Positions 1,372 through 57,895 of a DNA stretch of 64,000 nucleotides are shown here, piece by piece. Made by a program: the position numbers and the translations under genes. Below the pieces are notes generated by a model, which was not told the DNA's origin, made no database searches, and was given only the letters and a program-made list of their open reading frames with translations. The stretch's first letter is position 1; the number at the start of each line of letters is the position of its first letter. Source of the stretch: an uncultured bacterium (GTDB lineage Bacteria; Patescibacteriota; Minisyncoccia; Phycocordibacterales; GWA1-40-21); contig CAIJUJ010000021.1 of the NCBI GenBank assembly GCA_903823865.1, positions 6,732 to 70,731 of the forward strand, in the 5' to 3' direction.

Positions 1372-1563
1372 TTGTGCCAAGGGCCGGAATCTCTCCTTCA
1401 CCTTTCATTTCATCGCCACTCAATTCGGGCTAGGCACCAGTTCATTCACCCCGCAAGCTTGCGGGGTATCATTCCGCTGTTCTCGTCCGGACAGAAGCAA
1501 AGCAGTTTGCTTCCTCCCTCAAGCCAATTTTAAAAACACCAAATGTTGGTGTTTTTAAAATTG
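1372..1563 (-). mobile_element. tRNA-3'-linked miniature element, family I (Phe copy): terminator + GAAGCAAA-GCAG-TTTGCTTC hairpin + inverted T-arm copy + 17-nt direct duplicate of the tRNA-Phe 3' end
   Basis: 'ttgtgccaagggccgga' at 1372-1388 duplicates 1561-1577; hairpin 1494-1513; terminator hairpin 1532-1556; 'gttctcgtccggac' is an inverted copy of the T-arm. Confidence 0.5.
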
Positions 1564-1636
1564 TGCCAAGGGCCGGACTCGAACCGGCGACCACATCCTC
1601 TTCAGGGACATGCTCTACCAACTGAGCTACCTTGGC
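1564..1636 (-). tRNA. tRNA-Phe (GAA)
   Basis: Manual cloverleaf: acceptor GCCAAGG/CCTTGGC, D GCTC-AGTTGGTA-GAGC, anticodon loop CUGAAGA, T GCCGG-TTCGAGT-CCGGC. Confidence 0.9.
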
Positions 1637-1707
1637 AATGACAATTTGTTTAATTGTTATTTTAGATATTACACTATTTAGTAGAAAAATTCTAGGGTTA
1701 AATCAAT

Positions 1708-1974
1708 TTATTTTATTATATTCGTTATAGAAGTAGGAATTTTACTTGTTACCGATTTAACACTATTTATATTACCTTGTAAGTTCTGGTATGCTTTAAG
1801 CGCAGCATCTAAATACGGTTGAATGAAATTATATGCGATGACTGCTACGACAATAATTATTATCCAATAAATAATCCTGAGGATTGAAGACCAGCGATTT
1901 GCTCGTCTCATCCCCTTGAGCATATGGTTGTTTTCTTTTACTAAATCGTAAATTTCTTTTTCGTTTGGGTTCAT
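1708..1974 (-). CDS. small membrane protein, hypothetical
   Basis: 88-aa ORF with one strong TM helix. Confidence 0.4.
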   Translation of the reverse strand: MNPNEKEIYDLVKENNHMLKGMRRANRWSSILRIIYWIIIIVVAVIAYNFIQPYLDAALKAYQNLQGNINSVKSVTSKIPTSITNIIK

Positions 1975-2605: not shown

Positions 2606-2676
2606 TGCGAGTGGCGAGAATCGAACTCGCGCCCGATGCTTGGGAAGCACCAGTTCTACCACTAAACTACACTCGC
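2606..2676 (-). tRNA. tRNA-Gly (CCC)
   Basis: Manual fold: acceptor GCGAGTG/CACTCGC, anticodon loop UUCCCAA, T GCGAG-TTCGATT-CTCGC. Confidence 0.85.
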
Positions 2677-2814
2677 CCGGTAGTAGAATTTGGCATCAAA
2701 AAGTTTTTCAACCAAATTTTTCTACAATTATCTATTCAACTATCAAACTACCTTATAACAACATAAACATCAATATATAACTTTTTAAAAACAATGCCAA
2801 ATTTCACTACGGGG
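2677..2814. mobile_element. MITE-like element with ~20-bp terminal inverted repeats, immediately upstream of tRNA-Gly
   Basis: CCGGTAGTAGAATTTGGCAT (2677-2696) and ATGCCAAATTTCACTACGGGG (2794-2814) are inverted repeats; AT-rich ~100-bp interior; second copy at 6933-7072. Confidence 0.45.
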
Positions 2815-2823
2815 CTCACATGA

Positions 2824-6932: not shown

Positions 6933-7072
6933 ACCCAGTAGTGAATTTTGGCATTATTTTTTAAAAAATATTTTGTATTCTATTTCTACAATAAAACGTT
7001 TGCAAATATATTAAAAAACAGATTATTTTTGTGAATAAAAAATATTTTTGATGCCAAAATCTACTACAGGGC
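6933..7072. mobile_element. MITE-like element with ~21-bp terminal inverted repeats, upstream of tRNA-Tyr
   Basis: CCCAGTAGTGAATTTTGGCAT (6933-6953) and ATGCCAAAATCTACTACAGGGC (7051-7072); homologous to 2677-2814. Confidence 0.45.
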
Positions 7073-7077
7073 AAACA

Positions 7078-7116
7078 AAGAGGGGTTTCGCTTCGCGAAA
7101 CCCCTCTTTGTTTTTT
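7078..7116. terminator. rho-independent terminator downstream of clpB
   Basis: aaagaggggtttcg-cttc-gcgaaacccctcttt followed by tttttt. Confidence 0.75.
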
Positions 7117-7126
7117 GAATTGTATC

Positions 7127-9802
7127 TTAAACACTTTCAACTAATTGTCTTTCCAATATCATCCCCTTTCTCCCTTTCTTAACACTGAAAGACATCTCAT
7201 CATTTTTTATATCAACTATTACTGTTCCGCCTTTTAATATTCCTTCTGAAATAATAAGAGATGCGATGTGATTCAAAATTTTGTCCTGAATCAATCTTTT
7301 AAGTGGTCGTGCACCATATTGAGGATTGTATCCTTTTTCAGAAAGATATTCTAAAGCTTTGTCTGAAATTTGCATGACAATTTCTTTGGTTTGCAATCTT
7401 TCTTTGACTAAATTTATTTGTATATCAACAATTTTTTTAATAGCTTCTTTTGACAAAATATCAAAAATAATTACATCATCAAGACGGTTCATAAACTCTG
7501 GTCTGAAAAAATCTTTCAAGCTAGCAAGTATTTTTTCTTTGACTAAATTGTATTCATTTTTCTTTTCATCTTTTGCCGTAAAACCAATTTGCTCCATTTT
7601 ATCTATAAATTGAGCCCCAATATTTGATGTCATAATAATCAAAGTGTTTTTGAAATTGACCACTCTGCCTTTTGAATCAGTAAGTCTTCCATTATCAAGA
7701 ACCTGAAGTAATAAATTAAATACTTCTGGATGTGCTTTTTCTATTTCATCAAATAAAATAACTGAATATGGTCTGTGGCGAACAGTTTCTGTAAGTGCTC
7801 CACCTTCTTCATAGCCAACATATCCTGGAGGTGAACCAATAAGTTTTGAAGTAGAATGTTTTTCCATAAACTCTGACATATCTACTCTTATCAAAGCTCT
7901 TTCATCATCAAACATAAATTCTGCTAGTGCTTTTGTGAGTTCGGTCTTTCCTACTCCAGTTGGACCCAAGAAAATAAATGAACCGATCGGTCTGTTTGGG
8001 TCGGCAATTCCAGCACGAGATCTTTTTATCGTGTCAGCAATTTTTCTAACCGCTTCATTCTGACCAACAATTCTTTTTTCAAGCTCTTGTTCCATTCTAA
8101 CAAGCTTATGTGCTTCGCTTTCAAGCATTCGAGAAACTGGGACGCCTGTCCATTTTGAAACCACTGAGGCGACATCCTCTTCTGTAATTTCTTCTTTCAA
8201 AACTCTTCTTGAAGTTTGGAGTTTTTTCAATTTTTTAAGTTTTACATCCAATTCTTTTTCTGCTTCAGGGATTTTTCCATATCTAATCTCGGCAGCTTTT
8301 GAAAGATCTGCTTTTATTTCTGCATTTTCCGCTTCAATTCTCAAAACTTCTAATTGTTTTTTGAGAGATTTAATGCCACTCAAAATTTCTTTTTCAGTTG
8401 TCCATCTGAGCTCAAGATCAGAAGTTTTTTCTTTCAAATCAGCAATTTCTTTTTCAATTATCGCAACTCTTTTTTTAGTTTCTTTCTTTTTTTCTCCTTC
8501 AACTTCTTTTTTGAGTGCTTCTTTTTCAATTTCAAGTCGCATAACTTTTCTTCTTGTCTCTTCAAGAATAGGCGGCATATTTTCCAAAGATATTTTTAAC
8601 ATTGATGAGGCTTCATCAATGAGGTCCACTGCCTTGTCTGGCAAAAATCTATCGGTAATATATCTTGAACTTAAATTCACGGCAGACAAAATTGCATCAT
8701 CAGTAATTCTGACTCCGTGATAAAGTTCGTATTTTTCTTTGAGACCCCGAAGTATTGCAACAGCATCTTCTACTGATGGTTCGGCAATCATCACAGACTG
8801 AAAACGCCTTGTTAATGCGGGGTCTTTTTCGATTTTTTGATATTCCTTTATTGTTGTCGCACCAATGGTTCTAAGTTCGCCTCGCGATAATGCTGGCTTT
8901 AACATGTTTGAAGCGTCCATTGAACCCTCAGCAGAACCAGCACCAACAATAGTGTGTATTTCATCAATAAACAAAATTATTTTCCCTTCTGATTTTTCAA
9001 TTTCTTTTATTATTCCTTTTAATCTTTCTTCAAACTCTCCCCTGTATTTTGTTCCGGCAATAAGAAGTCCAAGATCAAGAGATACAAGCTCTTTGTCTTT
9101 CAAAGATTCTGGAACATCGTTTGTTGCAATTCTAATTGCGAGACCCTCAACGATTGCTGTTTTTCCTACACCAGCTTCACCAATAAGTATCGGATTATTT
9201 TTTGTTCTTCTAGAAAGTATTTGAATTATTCTTGAAATTTCATTGTCTCGCCCAATAACTGGGTCAAGTTTATTATCTTTTGCGAGCTTGGTAAGATTTC
9301 TAGTGTATTTTAAAATTGCTCGGTATTTTTTGGGCTGATCTATATCACTCCCCTTCAAAGTTTTTAATTCTGAAAGAATTTTTAATATGGTTGTTTTATC
9401 AATTTTAAATCTCATCAAAATATCTCGGGCAGAAGTTGGTGTATCAAGTAATGCCAAAAAAAGATGTTCAGTTGAAATAAATTCGTCTTTCAAATCTTGT
9501 GCTTCTTTTCCAGACAAATCCAAAACTTTTGCTAGATCCGGAGTTAAATAAATTTGATTTGCTGGAGAAAGGGTTGTTGAGCCAGTACTCGATTCGATTG
9601 CTTCAAGAATTGAATCAGTAAATAAAATTAAATCAATTTCTAATCTGTCCAAAATTGAAGAGACAACGCTTTCCTCTTGAAGTACAAGTGCTGCCAAAAG
9701 ATGTAAAGGATTTACATGATTTTGCCCACGTTCAATAGCAAGCTCATGAGCTCTTCTGATTACTTCTTTCGCTTTAGTTGTGAAGTTGTTAAATGGTGGC
9801 AT
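7127..9802 (-). CDS. clpB: ATP-dependent chaperone ClpB (two AAA+ modules, coiled-coil M-domain)
   Basis: 891 aa; N-terminal Clp-N repeats; two Walker A sites 'GEAGVGKT' and 'GPTGVGKT'; long coiled-coil between the AAA domains. Confidence 0.95.
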   Translation of the reverse strand: MPPFNNFTTKAKEVIRRAHELAIERGQNHVNPLHLLAALVLQEESVVSSILDRLEIDLILFTDSILEAIESSTGSTTLSPANQIYLTPDLAKVLDLSGKEAQDLKDEFISTEHLFLALLDTPTSARDILMRFKIDKTTILKILSELKTLKGSDIDQPKKYRAILKYTRNLTKLAKDNKLDPVIGRDNEISRIIQILSRRTKNNPILIGEAGVGKTAIVEGLAIRIATNDVPESLKDKELVSLDLGLLIAGTKYRGEFEERLKGIIKEIEKSEGKIILFIDEIHTIVGAGSAEGSMDASNMLKPALSRGELRTIGATTIKEYQKIEKDPALTRRFQSVMIAEPSVEDAVAILRGLKEKYELYHGVRITDDAILSAVNLSSRYITDRFLPDKAVDLIDEASSMLKISLENMPPILEETRRKVMRLEIEKEALKKEVEGEKKKETKKRVAIIEKEIADLKEKTSDLELRWTTEKEILSGIKSLKKQLEVLRIEAENAEIKADLSKAAEIRYGKIPEAEKELDVKLKKLKKLQTSRRVLKEEITEEDVASVVSKWTGVPVSRMLESEAHKLVRMEQELEKRIVGQNEAVRKIADTIKRSRAGIADPNRPIGSFIFLGPTGVGKTELTKALAEFMFDDERALIRVDMSEFMEKHSTSKLIGSPPGYVGYEEGGALTETVRHRPYSVILFDEIEKAHPEVFNLLLQVLDNGRLTDSKGRVVNFKNTLIIMTSNIGAQFIDKMEQIGFTAKDEKKNEYNLVKEKILASLKDFFRPEFMNRLDDVIIFDILSKEAIKKIVDIQINLVKERLQTKEIVMQISDKALEYLSEKGYNPQYGARPLKRLIQDKILNHIASLIISEGILKGGTVIVDIKNDEMSFSVKKGRKGMILERQLVESV

Positions 9803-10027
9803 TTACCCGAAAAAATTTTTACTGATAAAAGTTGTTTTGACCTTTATTACTAATTTAATATACTCTTTCTAAAAAATAAGTGCAAATATTCATATTTTGA
9901 GCAAAATAAACAACTTTTTTGCATTATGTGCTTTTTAAAAAGAAGTAATTTTTATATACTTATAGCTAATTATAAATATTTTTTGACTCCAAACACTAGC
10001 TACGCACATAATGCGTCAGTAAAAACT
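9803..10027 (-). promoter_or_regulatory. structured 5' leader/promoter region of clpB, homologous to the RNase J leader (blocks at 10004-10027, 9911-9933, 9803-9836)
   Basis: Three conserved blocks shared with 28524-28728; block 3 ends at the ATG; blocks 1/3 and 1/2 are mutually complementary. Confidence 0.45.
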
Positions 10028-10042
10028 TTAACGGGTGAAGGT

Positions 10043-10906
10043 TTATTGAGCTTTTTTCTGTGAGTCAGCAAGCGCATTTAGTGCATTTTGGATATCTAGG
10101 CTTGGAGTAAACAAATCTGACTTTGAACTATCCATATATATAGTCTTGATTCCGACAAGTTCTCCAGAAAGATTTAATAACAAACCACCAGAAATAAAAT
10201 TGGCAGGAACTGATGTTTCTATTGAGGATATTTTAGTAGTAACTGGTGTAGATGTAGAATTATCAGTCGGCTGGATTTGTTTAACAGATAATGTTGAGAC
10301 AATTCCTGTTGAAACTGAATCTTTTGATTCTCCTCCAATATAAATTACTGATTGTCCTAGTTTCAAATCATTTTTTGAAATAGAAACTGTATTATATTTT
10401 ACAGGATTTTTTTCGTCATTTTTAATTTTTAATAATGCTACTTGTTCTCCTGATACAGATCTTAAAACAGAAAGATCTATTAATTTATTATCTGAATTGG
10501 TAATAAAATATTTTCCACCATCTGAAATAAGATTATTATCTGTAGCAATCATGCCGTCTGTACTTATAATAACCCCTAATCCAACAAATACCATAGAATT
10601 TGATCCAGATGATGGATCTGTATTTGTTCTATAAATTCTTATCAAACTATTTTTATTTTTTTCTACAGCTCCAACTATTTGATCGTCTGTGCTTACTACT
10701 ACGGTTTCTTTAACAACTGTTTGGGTTTCTTTTGTTGGACCTGTGACTGTTTCAATTGTTCTTTCTACAACTTTATTTATTGTTTGAACCACTCCAACTG
10801 GAGCTTGGTTCATAAGTGCAACAGTAACAATACCCGTCGCAATAGACGTAACAAAACTTACCAAAAGCGCAAGTAAAATTAATTGTTGTTTGGTTAAATT
10901 CTCCAT
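10043..10906 (-). CDS. membrane-anchored trypsin-like (DegP/HtrA S1C-like) protease-domain protein, possibly degenerate
   Basis: N-terminal TM helix; 'ISGGLLLNLSGELVGI' resembles the HtrA GNSGGPL Ser region; no clear catalytic His; no PDZ domain. Confidence 0.5.
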   Translation of the reverse strand: MENLTKQQLILLALLVSFVTSIATGIVTVALMNQAPVGVVQTINKVVERTIETVTGPTKETQTVVKETVVVSTDDQIVGAVEKNKNSLIRIYRTNTDPSSGSNSMVFVGLGVIISTDGMIATDNNLISDGGKYFITNSDNKLIDLSVLRSVSGEQVALLKIKNDEKNPVKYNTVSISKNDLKLGQSVIYIGGESKDSVSTGIVSTLSVKQIQPTDNSTSTPVTTKISSIETSVPANFISGGLLLNLSGELVGIKTIYMDSSKSDLFTPSLDIQNALNALADSQKKAQ

Positions 10907-15396: not shown

Positions 15397-15758
15397 CAGA
15401 TTAAAAGTGACCCATTCCTTGGGTCACTTTTAATTTGTCAGGTGGGAATCGAAAGACGGAGCGCGACGGCGCGAGTCAGGGTCGCGAGATTTTTCAGCAG
15501 AAAAATACTTGTGACCGATTCCCTAATCTTGCTTACGTGTGGGAATCGAAGAACCTTGAGTATATTTTTGAGCATGTACCCATGTGAAAAAATACGAAAG
15601 GTGTACCGTCCATGTAATGGAAGATAAGCGAAGCGGTCCCACCGTTTCTTTAATTTTATTCGGGGTGGGACCCAAATAAAATTTTGTCGAAAAATACTTG
15701 TGACCGATTCCCCAGTTTTAATTGATTTTCCTTCATTTTTCTGATATTTTATTGACAT
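15397..15758 (+). repeat. tRNA-3'-linked element, family II (Leu-TAA copy, two tandem units)
   Basis: Terminator 15402-15433; 'ggtgggaatcgaaagacggagcgcgac'; hairpin attttt-CAGCAG-aaaaat 15489-15506; 'gtgaccgattccc' twice; 'gaaaggtgtac', 'catgtaatgg', 'ggggtgggaccc' modules. Confidence 0.5.
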
Positions 15759-15831
15759 GCGTCCATAGCTCAGCTGGTAGAGCAAATCCCTCTTAAGGAT
15801 AAGGTCGTTGGTTCGACTCCAACTGGACGCA
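15759..15831 (+). tRNA. tRNA-Lys (CTT)
   Basis: Acceptor GCGTCCA/TGGACGC, anticodon loop CUCUUAA, T GTTGG-TTCGACT-CCAAC, A73. Confidence 0.8.
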
Positions 15832-15835
15832 CAAT

Positions 15836-15866
15836 TAAAAAACACCACTTATGTGGTATTTTTTAA
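15836..15866. terminator. bidirectional terminator
   Basis: aaaaaacaccac-ttat-gtggtattttttaa. Confidence 0.75.
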
Positions 15867-16225
15867 TCTTTAAAAGGTTTTTTAATAAAATTAGTTAAAC
15901 TATTTATTTTATCTTTCAAATCCTGTCTAAATTTTTCTTTTCTTTTTTCTTTCAAAAATTTTTCATTTAGTCTTTGAACTGCTTCTTTTGCCAATTTTGG
16001 TTTATTTTCATTAATATATTTAAATAAATCTTGCTTATCTATAAAATTATCATAGTCAATACTGTTCTTTATTTCTTCAGCAACTTCTAATTCTCTTTTG
16101 TAACTTAACAATCTTTGGTCAGGGGTCATAACCTCATCAGCAATGTTTTCTAATTCTTTTATAGAAATAGAATCATTGGAATCTTGATTTTTATTATATA
16201 AATTTGGTTGATTTTCTGAAAACAT
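15863..16225 (-). CDS. hypothetical acidic/coiled-coil protein
   Basis: 120-aa ORF with a terminator at its 3' end; no family recognised. Confidence 0.45.
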   Translation of the reverse strand: MFSENQPNLYNKNQDSNDSISIKELENIADEVMTPDQRLLSYKRELEVAEEIKNSIDYDNFIDKQDLFKYINENKPKLAKEAVQRLNEKFLKEKRKEKFRQDLKDKINSLTNFIKKPFKD

Positions 16226-16335
16226 ATGATTAATTAAATATTAAAATCCATTATATATGATAATTCTTTTTGTTTAAAAAAACAACCAAATTATTGATTT
16301 TAATGTTATTTCAGTATAGAATGCAATCCATAAAT

Positions 16336-16416
16336 GCACGGGTGGTGAAATGGCAGACACGCTAGCCTTAGGAGCTAGTGCCGTAAGGCATGGAGGTTCA
16401 AGTCCTCTCCCGTGCA
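16336..16416 (+). tRNA. tRNA-Leu (TAG)
   Basis: Acceptor GCACGGG/CCCGTGC, anticodon stem CTAGC/GCTAG with loop CUUAGGA, long variable arm, A73. Confidence 0.85.
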
Positions 16417-16690
16417 CAGTAAGAAAACGCCGATAGGGCGTTTTTCTGTGCGCAGGAGAGGACTTGAAAGACGGACTGAGCAAAGGCGAAGGAGCCGGGG
16501 TCGCGCAAATTTTCAGCAGAAAATTATGCGTGACCAAGTCCTCTTGTGAAATAGAAAAAATACGAAGACTATACTGACCATGTAATGACCAAGATTCCTC
16601 TCCCGTGTCGTGTATTTAATTTGGGGTGGGACCAAAATTAAATACTCGTGACCACATTCTATTTTATTTATGTTTTGACATTTAACCAAT
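16417..16690 (+). repeat. tRNA-3'-linked element, family II (Leu-TAG copy)
   Basis: Terminator 16423-16446; 'aggagaggacttgaa' inverted T-arm copy; 'gaaagacggactgagc'; hairpin aatttt-CAGCAG-aaaatt 16508-16525; direct T-arm/3'-end copies 'aagtcctct' and 'cctctcccgtg'. Confidence 0.5.
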
Positions 16691-26765: not shown

Positions 26766-28523
26766 GTGAAAGAAAAGATTAAAAAAATTCTCAATAAAAA
26801 ATGGGAGATTAGATTTTTTGAAAATCTCTCAGATATGACAAAAAAATTCAGTATATCTGAAAAATTGTTATTTTATACCCTAAGTACAATACTAGTAATC
26901 TCCGGACTAGTCATATTAAACAAGGTTAATGATTCTGTTTCCGTACAGGTTCCAACGAACGGTGGGTATTTAAAAGAAGGTATTATCGGCACACCTAGAT
27001 TTATAAACCCAGTTCTCGCCGTTTCTGATGTCGACCACGATTTGGCTGAGCTTGTATATTCTGGATTACTAAAATTTGGACAAGACAATTCTATAATAAA
27101 TGATTTGGCTAAAAGCTATGATGTTTCAAACGACGGTCTTGTTTATACTTTCACACTTCGTGATGATATTTACTTTCACGATGGAACAAAAGTTACAACA
27201 GACGATGTTGAGTTTACAATAAATAAAATTCAGGACAGCACAATTAAAAGCCCAAAGAGACCAGGATTTTATGACGTAAAAGTTGAAAAAGTTGATGATG
27301 AAACGATTAAATTTATTTTGAAAAAACCATACTCACCTTTCTTGAGCAATCTTACAGTTGGAATATTACCCAAACATTTGTGGGACAACTTAACATCAGA
27401 TCAGTTTCCTTTAAGCCAGTACAACGTTGAGCCAGTAGGTTCTGGACCATACAAAGTGACAAAAATGGAAACCTTACAAAAAAACAGTTTGCTTATTCCA
27501 ACATATTACGAATTAAATGCTTTTGACGGATATGTTTTTGGTAAACCATTTGTTGAGCAGCTTATTATAAATTTTTATAAAGATGAAACTAGTTTAATCG
27601 ACGCATACAATAGACGTGAAGTAGAATCAATAAATTCAATTTCACCAGAAAAAATAATCAGCCTAAATAAAGATAATGGATCAAAAATAAATGTTTCTCC
27701 CCTACCAAGAGTTTTTGCAGTATTTTTTAATCAAAATCAATCGGAAGCTTTAACATACAAAGAAGTCAGGCAGGCATTAAATATGGCAGTAGACAGAAAT
27801 GCAATTGTAAACAGTGTTTTATCTGGCTATGGTAGCCCACTTTATAGCCCTATACCAGCGGGGTTACTAGACGATTCAAATAACAATATAACCGACAACA
27901 ACATTGATGGAGCTATAAGTTTACTTACAAAAGCAGGCTGGGTAAAAAGTACGAGCACGGGTATCATGACTAAAAAAATTAGCAAAACAAAAACAGTTGA
28001 ACTTTCATTTACAATTTCTACATTAAATAGTGACGACCTAGTAAAAGCTGCCCAGCTAATAAAAAGTGCTTGGGAAAAAATCGGCGCAAAAGTTGATATC
28101 AATCAATTTGATTTTGGAGATTTACAACAAAATATTATTAGACCAAGAAAATTTGAAGCACTTCTCTATGGAGAAGTTATTGGTAGAGATATGGACTTCT
28201 TCGCATTTTGGCACTCATCTCAAAGAAATGATCCTGGTCTAAATATCGCAATGTATACAAATGCAAAAGTTGACAAACTTTTGGAAGATGCAAGAACAAC
28301 ACTTGATACATCAGCAAGAATTACAAAATATAAAACATTTGCTGATGAAATTCAAAAAGATACCCCAGCAGTATTTTTATACTCACCAGAATTTATTTAC
28401 ATAACACCAGCAAAAATCCAAGGATTTACGCTTGGTACTGTTACACTACCATTCGAAAGATTTCTTGATATCAATAATTGGTATATTGAAACAAACAATC
28501 TTTGGAAGATTTTCACCCGTTAA
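26766..28523 (+). CDS. ABC transporter substrate-binding protein, family 5 (OppA/DppA-like), solitary
   Basis: 585 aa; N-terminal anchor; family-5 SBP architecture; no permease genes adjacent. Confidence 0.7.
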   Translation: MKEKIKKILNKKWEIRFFENLSDMTKKFSISEKLLFYTLSTILVISGLVILNKVNDSVSVQVPTNGGYLKEGIIGTPRFINPVLAVSDVDHDLAELVYSGLLKFGQDNSIINDLAKSYDVSNDGLVYTFTLRDDIYFHDGTKVTTDDVEFTINKIQDSTIKSPKRPGFYDVKVEKVDDETIKFILKKPYSPFLSNLTVGILPKHLWDNLTSDQFPLSQYNVEPVGSGPYKVTKMETLQKNSLLIPTYYELNAFDGYVFGKPFVEQLIINFYKDETSLIDAYNRREVESINSISPEKIISLNKDNGSKINVSPLPRVFAVFFNQNQSEALTYKEVRQALNMAVDRNAIVNSVLSGYGSPLYSPIPAGLLDDSNNNITDNNIDGAISLLTKAGWVKSTSTGIMTKKISKTKTVELSFTISTLNSDDLVKAAQLIKSAWEKIGAKVDINQFDFGDLQQNIIRPRKFEALLYGEVIGRDMDFFAFWHSSQRNDPGLNIAMYTNAKVDKLLEDARTTLDTSARITKYKTFADEIQKDTPAVFLYSPEFIYITPAKIQGFTLGTVTLPFERFLDINNWYIETNNLWKIFTR

Positions 28524-28728
28524 AGTTTTTACTGATGCATTATGCAATTTCCATATTTACTAAAGTAATAAAAATTAATTATTCATTGTTTATAAAAAAT
28601 AAAATAAGAAAAATAACATTGCATAATGCAAAAAAGTTATTTAAAAATATTATCAATAATAAATTTAAATAAGTTATAGAATTTAGTCACTCATAACTTT
28701 TTATCAGTAAAAATTTTCTCGGGTAAAT
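28524..28728 (+). promoter_or_regulatory. structured 5' leader/promoter of RNase J, homologous to the clpB leader (blocks 28524-28547, 28617-28638, 28695-28728)
   Basis: Same three blocks as upstream of clpB; begins at the stop codon of the preceding gene. Confidence 0.45.
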
Positions 28729-28738
28729 AAAACAAAAC

Positions 28739-30763
28739 ATGATATATAATCAACAAAATCAAAACAATCACGGTGGAAGAAAATTCATACCAAAAAGAAA
28801 TCCTTCTTTCGGACAAAACCATTCTACAACCCACCACACAAATAGTGGATCGTTTTCTGCTACTACACATGTGGTAAATACAAACACCAAATCTTTTGTA
28901 GCTGAAAATTTAAATAGACCAGAGACATTATTGGCAAATCAAACAAAAAAGAAACTCATCTTTGTAAGAAAAAGCCCAACGCACAACAACACAAATCAAA
29001 ATAACCCACAAAAACATACAGTAAAAAAACATGGCGTCAGAAAAGTAACATCTGAGGTTGCCACAAAAAAAGAACAAGTTATTCCAGCACTTGCCGAAGG
29101 AAACATAAGAATAATTCCGCTTGGAGGTGTTGAGGGTATAGGACAAAATATGACCGCCATTGAATACGGCGATGATATAATCGTCATAGACGCTGGTATA
29201 CAGTTTAAAACAGAAGAAACTCCTGGAATTGACTACATTCTTCCAAATACCAAATATCTCGAACAAAGAAAAGGCAAAATACGTGGTTTAGTAATAACAC
29301 ACGGCCACTTGGATCACATTGGTGCAATACCTTTTGTTATGGAGTCTTTGGGTAACTGCCCAATATACACAAGAGAATTTGGTGCGCTACTTATTAAAAA
29401 ACGACAATCAGAATTCCCCCACCTTCCAGAGTTAAATATAAAAATGATAGATAAAAATACAGATTTTTTACCTATTGGCACAAATTTAAAAATTAAGTTC
29501 TTTGGTATTACCCACGCTATTCCAGATTCAGCTGGCGTAATCATAGCAACACCGCACGGAGATATTGTTTGTACCGGTGATGTGAGAGTTGATAATACTA
29601 ATGGCACACCAAAAGAAAAGGAGTTCGAACAGTACAAAATGTTTAAAGACAGAAAAGTTTTATTGCTTATGATGGATTCTACTGGAATTGAAAAACCAGG
29701 TTGGGGTATATCTGAAGACTTAGTCATTTCAACAATTGATAATATTGTAAAAAATGTCACGGGTAGAATAATCATTGCTACTTTTTCATCTCAGGTGGAA
29801 AGAATTTTACATTTTATAAGAATGTCAGAAAAATATGGTAAAAAATTAGTCATTGAAGGAAGAAGCATGAAAAATAATGTGGAAATTATTAAATTTCTAA
29901 AACTTGCTGACACAAAACATATTATTGATGTAAAAGATATGCACGACTACCCTCCTCATAAACTCATGATACTTTCAACAGGGGCACAGGGTGAAGAGTT
30001 TGCTGGTTTGATGAGAATGTCAAATAACACTCACAAAGAAATTAAATTAAACAAAACAGACACAATTATTTTGTCTTCATCAGTTATCCCAGGAAATGAA
30101 AGAGCCGTTGCAGACTTGAAAGACAATTTGTACAGACATGATTCTAAAATAATTACTTATACTGACACGGATGTTCACGCTGGTGGTCACGGAAAAAGAT
30201 CTGAACTTGAATGGATTCATAGACAAATCCCCTACAAATTCTTCATGCCATATCACGGCCATCATTATATGCTTAAAATGCATGCCGAACTTTCAATGAA
30301 TATTGGTACTCCGAAAGAAAATATTATTGTACCAGATAATGGAAGTGTAGTTGAAATAGTAGAAAATGGTTCAAAAATAAAAATGTTAAAAGAAAAAGCA
30401 CCTTCGGGAATTGTGATGGTGGACGGATTCTCTGTTGGAGATGTTCAGGAAGTTGTTATTCGTGATAGACAAATGCTTGCACAAGATGGAATGTTTGTAA
30501 TTATTGCAAGTATAGATGTAAATCTTGGTAAACTAAAAAAATCTCCAGATATTATTTCAAGAGGTTTTGTTTATTTGAAAGAATCACAAGATTTACTGAA
30601 AAACACCAGAATTATTATTAAGAGAACAATTGAAGAAGGCGCTATTGGTAAACCAATAAATTTTGATATGCTAAAGGATGCGATTACTGATAATGTCAGT
30701 AGATATTTATTCCAAGAAACAGCAAAAAAACCGATGGTGATACCTGTGGTGATTGGGGTCTAA
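28739..30763 (+). CDS. rnj: ribonuclease J (beta-CASP metallo-beta-lactamase) with ~110-aa low-complexity N-terminal extension
   Basis: 'ITHGHLDHIG' MBL motif; beta-CASP region; N-terminus rich in N/Q/H/T. Confidence 0.85.
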   Translation: MIYNQQNQNNHGGRKFIPKRNPSFGQNHSTTHHTNSGSFSATTHVVNTNTKSFVAENLNRPETLLANQTKKKLIFVRKSPTHNNTNQNNPQKHTVKKHGVRKVTSEVATKKEQVIPALAEGNIRIIPLGGVEGIGQNMTAIEYGDDIIVIDAGIQFKTEETPGIDYILPNTKYLEQRKGKIRGLVITHGHLDHIGAIPFVMESLGNCPIYTREFGALLIKKRQSEFPHLPELNIKMIDKNTDFLPIGTNLKIKFFGITHAIPDSAGVIIATPHGDIVCTGDVRVDNTNGTPKEKEFEQYKMFKDRKVLLLMMDSTGIEKPGWGISEDLVISTIDNIVKNVTGRIIIATFSSQVERILHFIRMSEKYGKKLVIEGRSMKNNVEIIKFLKLADTKHIIDVKDMHDYPPHKLMILSTGAQGEEFAGLMRMSNNTHKEIKLNKTDTIILSSSVIPGNERAVADLKDNLYRHDSKIITYTDTDVHAGGHGKRSELEWIHRQIPYKFFMPYHGHHYMLKMHAELSMNIGTPKENIIVPDNGSVVEIVENGSKIKMLKEKAPSGIVMVDGFSVGDVQEVVIRDRQMLAQDGMFVIIASIDVNLGKLKKSPDIISRGFVYLKESQDLLKNTRIIIKRTIEEGAIGKPINFDMLKDAITDNVSRYLFQETAKKPMVIPVVIGV

Positions 30764-35099: not shown

Positions 35100-35399
35100 C
35101 TATACAAACTGGGGGGCTCCTCTAACATAAGTATTAAGTTCGATGATAGCCATTCGATGTTCGATCGTAATCTCCGGTAATTTTACTTTATTTGACAGAA
35201 TATCGAGACAGTAATCCTCGACAAATTCTGGAACATCTGCAACAAACAAGCGTTTACTGCTATCTATTTCGCAAAATTCCAAAAAATATCCCATAATACT
35301 TTTTTGTGATATCTTTGGTACTTTTTTTTCAAATGCAAAATGAAAAAGGACAATTGGGTGAATGTTATATCTTATACAGACCAGTATAAACATTTCCAT
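35100..35399 (-). CDS. hypothetical protein
   Basis: 99-aa ORF, no family recognised. Confidence 0.3.
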   Translation of the reverse strand: MEMFILVCIRYNIHPIVLFHFAFEKKVPKISQKSIMGYFLEFCEIDSSKRLFVADVPEFVEDYCLDILSNKVKLPEITIEHRMAIIELNTYVRGAPQFV

Positions 35400-56466: not shown

Positions 56467-56934
56467 TTATTTGAAATATTTGATTAAAAAATCTTTTGTT
56501 TGTTCTGGCCAAATAGTTAGGTTTTTTATTTCTTTTACATCAACCCACATTGGATTATAAATATTTTTTTCTGATGCCCTTCCCACCTCAACGCTATCAT
56601 TTGCCAATTTTGGTACACCGGAAATGTATTTACATAAACAAATATGATGTGTTCTTCCATTTATGTCTATCAAAGAAAAGAGTTTTTTATCAAAGTCGGC
56701 CTTAATTGATGTTTCTTCTAATAACTCACGGGTTGTAGCATAAGCTAATGTCTCACCTTCTTCGACATGACCTCCTGGTAAAACATAATACTCATTATCG
56801 TTTTTGTGACGAAAAATCATTAAAACTTTATTATCCTTGTAAACAAATGCTGTGGCCCTATCGCCTATCATGAAAAAAATTATACCATAAATCATACGAA
56901 CCGGCTGGCCGGAGTTTCTAAGATTTCGAGTCAT
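56467..56934 (-). CDS. NUDIX hydrolase (start more likely the Met at ~56892)
   Basis: Nudix box 'LPGGHVEEGETLAYATTRELLEETS'; the annotated N-terminus runs into the family I repeat. Confidence 0.75.
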   Translation of the reverse strand: MTRNLRNSGQPVRMIYGIIFFMIGDRATAFVYKDNKVLMIFRHKNDNEYYVLPGGHVEEGETLAYATTRELLEETSIKADFDKKLFSLIDINGRTHHICLCKYISGVPKLANDSVEVGRASEKNIYNPMWVDVKEIKNLTIWPEQTKDFLIKYFK

Positions 56935-57117
56935 GCTGGCCGGAGTTTCTCCCTCGACTAAAGCCTCGTCTTCACTCGGCTTTGTCTGGGCACCAGCTCA
57001 TTCACCTCGCAAGCTTGCGAGGTATCATTCCGCTGTTCGAATCCGGACGCAAGCAAAGCAGTTTGCTTGCTCCAGCCGCGCAAATAAAAATAACCACTTT
57101 CGTGGTATTTTTATTTG
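56902..57117 (-). mobile_element. tRNA-3'-linked miniature element, family I (Asp copy), with an extra partial tandem duplication of its distal end
   Basis: 'gctggccgga' at 56904-56913 and 56935-56944 duplicates the tRNA 3' end at 57122-57131; hairpin GCAAGCAAA-GCAG-TTTGCTTGC at 57049-57070; 'gttcgaatccggac' inverted T-arm copy; body 'tcattcaccYcgcaagcttgcgRggtatcattccgctgttc' shared with the Phe copy. Confidence 0.5.
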
Positions 57118-57520: not shown

Positions 57521-57895
57521 CTACTTGTTTAGATAGTGTTTTAATTGTTTATTTAAATATTTTCTTCCAGAACCACCTTTTAGAAATTTCTCTCTACCAA
57601 CCGCATCATCTATATTCAAATATGCTTCATAATAAACAAGTTTCCAGTTGGTTTTATCTTTTGTAGTTCTACACCCCTTTCCTCTTAGATGGTCAGTGAT
57701 TCTTTGTTTTAGATTTGATGAATATCCAATATAAAAACTCTTATCTTCATTTTGTAAAACATATGTATAATACATTTGGTCATTATCACTTTTATACAAA
57801 AATAAATCAAATTTTTGGCCTGCCACGAGACAAAAACTACCTTGGCCGCGCAAAATAAATTGATTACAATTTATCGCCCGGCTCACGAAAAACAA
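57521..57895 (-). CDS. GIY-YIG nuclease-family protein (UPF0213/YhbQ-like; start probably the Met at ~57772)
   Basis: 'YYTYVLQNEDKSFYIGYSSNLKQRITDH...W.LVYYE' GIY-YIG core. Confidence 0.6.
   Translation of the reverse strand: MFFVSRAINCNQFILRGQGSFCLVAGQKFDLFLYKSDNDQMYYTYVLQNEDKSFYIGYSSNLKQRITDHLRGKGCRTTKDKTNWKLVYYEAYLNIDDAVGREKFLKGGSGRKYLNKQLKHYLNK

Follow-up and report, generated by a model that had tools for sequence, protein, structure and literature searches.

Free-standing GIY-YIG homing endonuclease genes of the T-even phages, such as seg and mobE, lie between host genes and are present or absent at the same locus in relatives. In mobE and in I-TevI, an RNA hairpin over the start site limits translation of the nuclease. 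Stand-alone GIY-YIG proteins of the UPF0213/YhbQ type are, to our knowledge, encoded by ordinary single-copy genes of unknown function that have no end-pairing arms. The RNA-folding miniature inverted-repeat transposable elements (MITEs) Correia, ERIC, RUP, and BOX are 100–300 bp long, with inverted termini, many intergenic copies, and derivatives without an open reading frame (ORF); they are co-transcribed with their neighbours and fold into long hairpins. RNA thermometers (ROSE, fourU) and the CIRCE/HrcA and CtsR systems act upstream of clpB, with start-proximal sequence paired. In the rRNA genes of bacteria of the candidate phyla radiation (CPR), GIY-YIG ORFs are reported from insertions other than group I and group II introns; many such insertions are short, lack an ORF, and are located at stem-loops (PMC11270868). 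Here we describe an element that occurs upstream of clpB and of rnj, the gene for RNase J, in a 64,000-nt stretch of DNA (hereafter the window) from an uncultured bacterium of the Patescibacteriota (assembly GCA_903823865.1, contig CAIJUJ010000021.1, positions 6,732–70,731). We consider it likely that both leaders are pseudogenised copies of a tiny selfish GIY-YIG cassette, an overall reading that rests mainly on the identity of the element. The two genes would then share sequence because each happens to carry a dead copy, and not because they are co-regulated.

A preliminary description of this stretch reported that the segments upstream of clpB (7127–9802, minus strand, ATG at 9800–9802) and rnj (28739–30763, plus strand, ATG at 28739), both genes being identified by Pfam, share three blocks, and this was confirmed. 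Block 1 (10007–10039 and 28512–28544, 33 nt) and block 3 (9801–9830 and 28699–28728, 30 nt) are each 97% identical between the two sites and are the longest and the sixth longest inverted matches in the window, respectively. Block 2, CATAATGCAAAAAAGTT, is a 17-nt identity (9915–9931 on the minus strand and 28621–28637). The exact 10-mer TTTTTACTGA occurs four times in the window, each time in an arm of the two copies. When aligned to intact 295-nt copies of the cassette, the remnant upstream of clpB extends over 232 nt (9805–10036, minus strand); it is flanked by a Trypsin_2 peptidase gene (stop at 10043–10045) and clpB. The remnant upstream of rnj extends over 210 nt (28515–28724, plus strand) and is flanked by an SBP_bac_5 gene and rnj, the stop codon of the former (TAA, 28521–28523) lying inside the 5′ arm. 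The preliminary description placed the end of both leaders exactly at the start codon. This holds for clpB (CGGGTAA-ATG), but the ATG of rnj lies 14 nt further on, and the rnj copy has an ATA triplet after block 3 where other copies, including the ortholog in locus L008, have the host ATG.

Folding of the two leaders produced the helices that had been predicted for them, with energies of −61.8 kcal/mol (clpB) and −46.4 kcal/mol (rnj) and z-scores of −6.3 and −6.6, and none of 200 shuffled sequences folded as well as either copy. However, the earlier model of two long-range helices had missed a third, and the computed fold of both copies is a three-way junction of helices P1, P2, and P3. P1 joins the two termini over 21 positions, including a 2 × 2 pyrimidine mismatch and one G-U pair, and its outer helix reaches ACCCG/CGGGT; the start-proximal block, earlier predicted to be sequestered, forms one strand of this closing helix. 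P2 joins GCATTATG.. with ..CATAATGC. In P3 of the clpB copy, AAAAGTTGTTT (9908–9918) pairs with AAACAACTTTT (9827–9837), and in the rnj copy 28631–28640 pairs with 28693–28702. The two copies differ from each other by compensatory changes, TGC/GCA versus CAAT/ATTG in P2 and G:C versus A:T in P3.

The family members of 293–296 nt contain a single 89-codon ORF bracketed by imperfect inverted termini of approximately 21 nt. The ORF starts at the ATG inside GCATT-ATG-CAA (block 1) and ends in ...AAA AAT TTT CTC GGG TAA, abutting the host ATG, so that the C-terminal codons and the stop codon form the 3′ arm of P1. In the intact gene, P1 is formed by the termini, P2 by the start region of the nuclease and the codons of the HN motif, and P3 by AAAAAGTT.. 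and ..AACTTTTT; the three helices are intrinsic to this gene and persist with compensatory substitutions in the ORF-less copies. Alignment showed that the window copies are collinear with the intact gene through the termini, the start region, the HN block, a PFALIYYEAYI remnant, and the C-terminal block. Block 1 corresponds to the 5′ terminus and the nuclease start codon, block 2 to the LHNAKKV codons, and block 3 to ..NFFISKNFLG and the stop codon.

In the clpB copy (minus strand throughout), the 5′ terminal arm ACCCGTTAAAGTTTTTACTGA (10016–10036) is the 5′ strand of P1 and covaries with the 3′ arm. The adjoining GCATTATGTGC (10004–10014), a remnant of the nuclease start-codon region, is the 5′ strand of P2 and pairs with 9921–9931. 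Block 2, GCACATAATGC-AA-AAAAGTTGTTT (9908–9931), is the remnant of the codons L-H-N-A-K-K-V and supplies both the 3′ strand of P2 (9921–9931) and the 5′ strand of P3 (9908–9918). Block 3, AAACAACTTTT-A-TCAGTAAAAATTTTTTCGGGT (9805–9837), comprises the 3′ strand of P3 and the 3′ arm of P1; it is what remains of the codons ...N-F-F-I-S-K-N-F-L-G and is followed by a TAA (9803–9805, sharing T9805) that touches the clpB ATG. This copy also keeps ATTTGCACTTAT...GTATATT, matching the PFALIYYEAYI codons, and this codon remnant, ATTTGCACTTATTTTTTAGAAAGAGTATATT (9857–9887), scores as a TTGCAC-17-TATATT promoter. A conserved internal clpB promoter in the P3 loop, present in the window and in L011, was considered and rejected: the motif is the PFALIYYEAYI coding remnant, and its conservation is therefore uninformative on promoter use, although the motif could still serve as an internal promoter in the clpB copy. 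In the rnj copy (plus strand), the pseudo-ORF ATGCAATTTCCATATTTACTAAAGTAA (28542–28568) encodes MQFPYLLK*, a frameshifted remnant of the N-terminus MQYVYVLQSK (GIY motif) of the intact gene. Block 2, ATTGCATAATGCA-AAAAAGTTAT (28618–28640), is the LHNAKKV remnant and forms the 3′ strand of P2 (with 28536–28548) and the 5′ strand of P3 (with 28693–28702), and block 3, ATAACTTTTT-A-TCAGTAAAAATTTTCTCGGGT-AA (28693–28726), combines the 3′ strand of P3 with the 3′ arm of P1 and a TAA that was once the stop codon. Neither window copy encodes a GIY-YIG domain: no ORF runs through the clpB copy, and tblastn gave no match at either site.

The 89-amino-acid product of the intact 295-nt copies matches PF01541 (E = 3e-14; 52.8–53.4 bits against a gathering cut-off of 22.6). 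Membership was judged on the GIY and YIG motifs, the conserved Arg, the H/N position, and the catalytic Glu, all of which are present, and the motifs YVY...LYVG...RL.LHN...REKYMK are visible in the protein. Among eight intact copies located upstream of unrelated genes, dN/dS was 0.02–0.23, with dS up to saturation, which shows purifying selection on a working nuclease gene. All ten intact copies are intergenic. Among solved structures, those of 1ZG2 and 1YWL, both of the UPF0213 type, are the closest by sequence, at a weak level (E about 0.01); they have the same size as the cassette nuclease and likewise consist of a single GIY-YIG domain. Homing-endonuclease profiles also match weakly (TIGR01453, 21.9 bits against a cut-off of 56; phrog_5123, E = 4e-4). 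The protein corresponds to the catalytic domain alone, without a DNA-binding domain. At least 175 related proteins in the public collection are annotated just as "GIY-YIG nuclease family protein" or "putative endonuclease." In more distant GIY-YIG subfamilies (40–55% identity), the arms have other sequences and the same CCC.../...GGG end-pairing, followed by the stop codon and the host ATG; the conserved trait is therefore the pairing of the ends and not a given sequence. The identical intact nuclease P0121, upstream of pheS, was found in sample ERZ1426555, which also holds the exact ClpB of the window, and the source genome may therefore carry a live copy. The window itself contains an intact 86-amino-acid GIY-YIG gene (57530–57787, minus strand) between two tRNA-Met genes. 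Its product is 40% identical to the cassette nuclease, a GATAAT box lies 6 nt before its ATG, so that it looks leaderless, and no end-pairing arms were seen around it.

Like seg and mobE, the cassette is an intergenic nuclease gene between host genes, bears the mark of purifying selection, and varies among relatives in its presence at a given locus; its P2 would mask the nuclease start much as the hairpin of mobE and I-TevI does. Unlike them, it encodes a protein of just 89 amino acids that lacks a DNA-binding domain, it is closed by inverted termini, and it lies exactly between a promoter or stop codon and the host ATG, with a TAA|ATG fusion. Furthermore, a single genome carries it at many unrelated chromosomal loci, a distribution that homing by itself does not account for.

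To define the family, public genomes were scanned with a pattern covering either arm, which gave 24 loci in nine Paceibacteria-type metagenome-assembled genomes in addition to chance matches, and metagenomes were scanned with part of the 3′ arm, which gave at least 119 loci. The two scans combined yielded at least 139 unique copies in Paceibacteria-type CPR bacteria, 125 of them with both arms. The organism of the window, judging by how its ClpB homologs are named, is of the Paceibacteria type as well. Five matches in viral contigs proved to be unrelated short palindromes (ACCCGAAAAATTTTTTCGGGT) and were rejected. The copy lengths peak at 131–137 nt (type I, with subtypes Ia, Ib, and Ic), and there are further groups at 206–232 nt (type II, the three-way-junction form to which the window copies belong) and at 293–296 nt. 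Internal deletions gave rise to the type I copies, in which about 35 nt remain at either end. Every copy is in the gene-sense orientation, and in 80 of the 139 the 3′ arm ...CGGGT is followed by AA-ATG, which places the host ATG at offset 2. The unbiased genome scan covered 26 copies: in about 22 of them (counting the true ATG of L007, which is located past its duplicated 3′ arm), a substantial ORF begins with an ATG no more than 9 nt from the 3′ arm, and none has such an ATG on the other side. Covariance-model scores were 100–125 bits on the sense strand versus 50–63 bits on the antisense strand. An invertible promoter (inverton) was rejected, since the inner segment has one orientation in all copies. 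A literature search found neither a published account of the cassette family nor one of its location at start codons or of its structured derivatives without an ORF; the one related report that it returned is that on GIY-YIG ORFs in CPR rRNA insertions (PMC11270868).

The downstream genes do not form a coherent set: 104 downstream proteins fall into 95 Pfam families. PilM, TrmD, ComM, GyrA, ClpB, FtsA, and MurJ recur, and RnpA and HPF are also among the hosts. The element is therefore not specific to clpB and rnj. At clpB, it is present in the window and in L011, L079, and L111 and absent in L002, L003, L166, L169, and L170, five relatives in which ClpB is 82–90% identical and synteny is conserved; these loci have a TTGAC(T/C)-17-TATAAT-type promoter and other leader sequences instead. 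In an RNA thermometer, a weak hairpin that covers the Shine-Dalgarno sequence or AUG in a heat-shock or virulence gene is kept at orthologs, unlike the element at these five clpB loci. In one of them (L170, 1380–1470; ClpB 85% identical), the clpB leader contains a hairpin of about 60 nt closed by ACCCCAGTGAAAT/ATTTCACGGGGT, which resembles the variant closing helix of a diverged relative of the element (2675–2815, described below) and may be a very short derivative.

The pairing of the arms was analyzed across copies. The metagenome search pattern left the distal part of P1 free and fixed the partner of arm positions 1–16. Distal pairs covary (A-U 61 and G-C 55; G-C 71 and A-U 50; U-A 90 and C-G 26), and one G-U pair and the 2 × 2 pyrimidine mismatch are conserved across copies. 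Where the pattern had fixed the partner of an arm position, 13 of the substitutions still allow a G-U pair, against a single transition that abolishes pairing; this bias toward G-U-compatible changes points to pairing of the sense strand. The L011 copy (1560–1830, plus strand), which has an internal ORF deletion and the arms CACCCAATAAAGCTCTTACTAA and TTAGTAAGAGATTTATAGGGT, shows several compensatory changes in proximal P1, which is invariant elsewhere. In 81 aligned type I copies (loci L007–L165), 95.6% of the cells were paired, and at 12 pairs both partners change; neither the 500 shuffles nor the slid controls came close to this. Such strong covariation, with compensatory changes in each of the helices, indicates selection on them. 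Two inner helices, A:A′ and B:B′ (for example, GUGUUGA/UCAACAC and UGAAAAUG/CAUUUUCA), occur in the type I copies, in the order A-B...A′-B′. Their strands overlap by 2–3 nt, so the two helices cannot coexist and are alternatives, yet both are found in nearly all type I copies and both covary across subtypes. In MAFFT columns, A:A′ was paired in only 78.5% of cells because subtype Ic is shifted by one column, and an anchored analysis gave 6–8 bp nearly everywhere. An H-type pseudoknot formed by A:A′ and B:B′ was rejected, as the overlap and the lack of linkers exclude it geometrically. The pair looks like a two-state switch.

Two explanations advanced in the preliminary description can be weighed against these results. 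The first is a dedicated cis-regulatory RNA leader, of the thermometer or riboswitch kind, that co-regulates clpB and rnj. The stable, covarying, start-proximal fold and the switch-like bistable junction of the short copies would be in keeping with such a leader, and the clpB copy resembles the known thermometers and heat-shock operators in lying upstream of clpB with start-proximal sequence paired. However, the element precedes about 95 unrelated gene families instead of being limited to stress genes and is missing at clpB in the five relatives. There is no Shine-Dalgarno sequence to mask, and P1, in folds of −46 to −62 kcal/mol, is far more stable than known thermometers. The blocks are moreover coding remnants, and no Rfam family was matched: at the gathering cut-off, Rfam 15 gave only tRNAs in the window and seven loci, and with permissive filters it gave nothing above E = 0.4 at the clpB leader. 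The second explanation, in which a common DNA-binding repressor would use the blocks as operators, gains something from GCATWATGC, which is palindromic and occurs twice in the rnj copy, and from the block spacing of about 80–100 bp; it is difficult to reconcile with paired segments that change while complementarity is kept (the P2 and P3 differences given above) or with downstream genes that lack functional coherence. The absence of CIRCE and CtsR consensus sequences from both leaders, already noted at the outset, was upheld: CIRCE has no match in the window with up to three mismatches, and CtsR has one weak match, at 35181, far from both leaders and below chance expectation. Taken together, the diversity of host genes, the absence at clpB of relatives, and the lack of CIRCE, CtsR, and Rfam matches leave a heat-shock regulon, a thermometer, and an operator unsupported; we regard the regulatory leader as very improbable and give the operator hardly any credence.

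A more serious competitor is that the helices act in DNA, as a cruciform or three-way junction or as terminal inverted repeats that are recognised by the 89-amino-acid nuclease or by a transposase acting in trans, with the short copies behaving like MITEs. The family is multi-copy, interiors that are 80–93% identical occur upstream of unrelated genes, and the short ORF-less derivatives keep both termini. Composite copies occur, with tandem elements in L094 (4445–4757, minus strand) and a duplicated 3′ arm in L007 (1033–1205, plus strand), and presence at clpB varies among relatives. A stand-alone GIY-YIG protein without a DNA-binding domain would suit structure-specific recognition; such a protein may move the cassette by structure-specific cleavage of the junction, a possibility that would amount to a new kind of transposase. 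The flanks are ambiguous. In about 60% of copies, CCCG...CGGG is flanked left and right by TAA, which makes a 3-bp target duplication possible, whereas about 30% have TCA on the left and TAA on the right, so that a duplication is not consistent, and the right-hand TAA was partly fixed by the search pattern. Other observations fit this explanation poorly. Orientation and distance to the host ATG are strict, unlike random insertion; the 13-to-1 bias concerns the sense strand; the covarying inner helices A:A′ and B:B′ would not be needed for transposase binding; and no transposase gene was seen adjoining any copy. Additionally, copies are retained at orthologous genes whose proteins are 50–94% identical (ComM five times, TrmD four times, and GyrA, ClpB, and MurJ three times each). 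On balance, we consider action in DNA unlikely, though it deserves some weight. With MITEs, the cassette shares the size, inverted termini, many intergenic copies, ORF-less derivatives, and, as predicted from its fold, the long hairpin of elements co-transcribed with their neighbours. MITEs, however, insert in either orientation and at variable distance from genes, whereas the orientation of the cassette and its 2-nt distance to the ATG are fixed, and the parent of the cassette encodes a GIY-YIG nuclease, whereas the parents of MITEs encode a DDE or HUH transposase. The cassette thus resembles both free-standing homing-endonuclease genes and MITEs and fails the defining features of both. As we picture its history, the cassette spreads to a new site now and then, is retained for a long time, and loses its ORF by decay.

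The fixed position of the cassette must be viewed in relation to how this organism starts translation. The preliminary description stressed that neither clpB nor rnj has a Shine-Dalgarno motif; this is true but not special, since a Shine-Dalgarno core was found for just 5 of the 60 ORFs in the window. Ten of the 60 window genes have TGnTAnnnT 6–9 nt before the ATG, with 6–7 nt from the −10 box to the ATG in leaderless genes, and in 19 an upstream stop codon lies no more than 25 nt from the start; many genes are spaced 1–15 nt from such a stop. With few Shine-Dalgarno cores, extended −10 boxes near the ATG, and close upstream stop codons, leaderless or coupled initiation is the apparent norm, and the organism seems to rely on leaderless starts and stop–start coupling. 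The cassette sits between the upstream expression signal, either a −10 box or a same-strand stop codon, and the host ATG. A TGnTATAAT box lies at −8 to −3 from the start of the element in 28 of 30 Ia and 14 of 20 Ib copies but is rare in Ic and type II copies, including both window copies. Instead, 15 of 23 Ic and 13 of 18 type II copies have a same-strand stop codon within −30 to +8, with a mode of −2; the commonest is a TAA made with the first A of the element or, as at rnj, a TAA inside the arm. Some Ic copies (e.g., L050 and L075) contain an internal TGATATAAT followed after 7 nt by a leaderless mini-ORF, such as MKKSKQTIFIGKNFLG*, that ends at TAA|ATG, and 17 of the 23 Ic copies keep an ATG-initiated ORF ending at that TAA. 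An upstream ORF as a general feature of the short copies was rejected, because the AUG of GAAAAUG is not conserved and Ia and Ib copies lack an ORF ending at TAA|ATG.

These observations suggest a mechanism by which the cassette could persist at such sites. In a genome with almost no Shine-Dalgarno sites, an insert of 130–300 nt at the initiation junction would be expected to silence the host gene. P1 would fold the insert into a closed domain and thereby bring the upstream stop codon, or the 5′ end of the transcript, back beside the host ATG; the TAA|ATG junction would add direct coupling wherever an ORF, even a remnant of 14–27 codons, ends there; and P2 would hide the start codon of the nuclease. 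The clamp step taken alone, in which P1 restores host initiation, is plausible, though we lean somewhat against it. The fuller proposal, that the cassettes are unrecognised "stealth" mobile genes fitted to translation without Shine-Dalgarno sequences, with ribosomes re-initiating across the insert in a manner like ribosome shunting, is speculative and on present evidence doubtful; if true, it would be a bacterial counterpart of ribosome shunting. The ORF-less derivatives of about 135 nt, with their two alternative covarying helices, may also have been domesticated to serve dozens of housekeeping genes as switchable leaders.

Several points weigh against this proposal. The invariance of the proximal arms is partly an artefact of the search patterns, and the covariation of the termini would also arise if one protein recognised both ends as DNA. 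The mutually exclusive helices A:A′ and B:B′ both covary, which the clamp idea does not account for. Judging from the −10 spacing alone, transcription of Ia and Ib copies would start at about G5 of the element; the ACCC of the 5′ arm would then be untranscribed and is nevertheless conserved. In most Ia and Ib copies no ORF ends at TAA|ATG, and translation of their host genes therefore cannot be due to coupling. Furthermore, we know of no experiment showing that a bacterial ribosome re-initiates across a helix-closed insert.

Two diverged relatives of the element in the window also bear on this question. The first (2675–2815, minus strand; 34.7 bits, E = 4e-4) has the closing helix GCCCCGTAGTGAAATTTGGCAT/ATGCCAAATTCTACTACCGGGC and the same A-B...A′-B′ inner topology, and its 3′ end overlaps the first 2 nt of a tRNA-Gly(ccc) gene. 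The second (6934–7072, plus strand; 31.4 bits, E = 0.002) belongs to the same variant class and is followed immediately by the bidirectional terminator hairpin of clpB (7074–7112), with no ORF downstream. One relative therefore precedes a tRNA gene and the other nothing, which a role in translation only does not explain; they better fit excision or a non-translational role. A further explanation is that transcripts are processed at the closing helix by an RNase III-type enzyme, which would excise the insert, like the intervening sequences of rRNA, to free an mRNA with a short leader or a tRNA precursor. P1, with about 21 bp and a conserved internal loop, has the usual form of an RNase III substrate, although only the geometry of the helix fits. 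Such processing would also be in line with the two relatives and with the GIY-YIG ORFs reported from non-intron insertions in CPR rRNA genes, which lie mainly at the top or base of a stem-loop (PMC11270868). A cut inside P1, however, would leave a leader of 8–12 nt without a Shine-Dalgarno sequence and not a leaderless mRNA, and it would break the TAA|ATG coupling that many copies keep. We therefore rate excision as rather improbable. The rRNA insertions come from the same radiation as the cassette and differ in lying inside rRNA genes, whereas the cassette and its relatives precede protein genes and one tRNA gene. The two may be related, a comparison made by description and not by sequence, and the cassette may thus bear on the unexplained GIY-YIG insertions in CPR rRNA genes.

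If the leaders are decayed cassettes, as we think likely, a structured leader common to two stress-related genes, which looks like the sign of a regulon, is in this case a repeat derived from a selfish gene. Similar leaders in CPR bacteria should be compared with the cassette family before they are called regulatory. The cassette would represent a minimal nuclease gene that lives exactly at the translation-start junction in organisms poor in Shine-Dalgarno sequences, and it could be used to test how long inserts are tolerated by leaderless or coupled initiation and to learn the function of stand-alone UPF0213-type GIY-YIG proteins.

Two further sets of repeats were observed in the window. A G+C-richer repeat of 136 nt, without an Rfam match, occurs at 1382–1517 and 56938–57073 (both minus strand; 78% identity). 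The copies lie about 45 nt downstream of tRNA genes (Phe and Asp), and their end is like the 3′ end of a tRNA (TCCGGCC..GGCAC); the second copy abuts the ATG of the ORF at 56467–56934. At 15473–16643, three families of direct repeats of 34–50 nt (D4, D6, and D16) lie downstream of tRNA-Leu(taa) and tRNA-Leu(tag), and they look like a unit of about 200 nt that was duplicated along with the tRNA genes.

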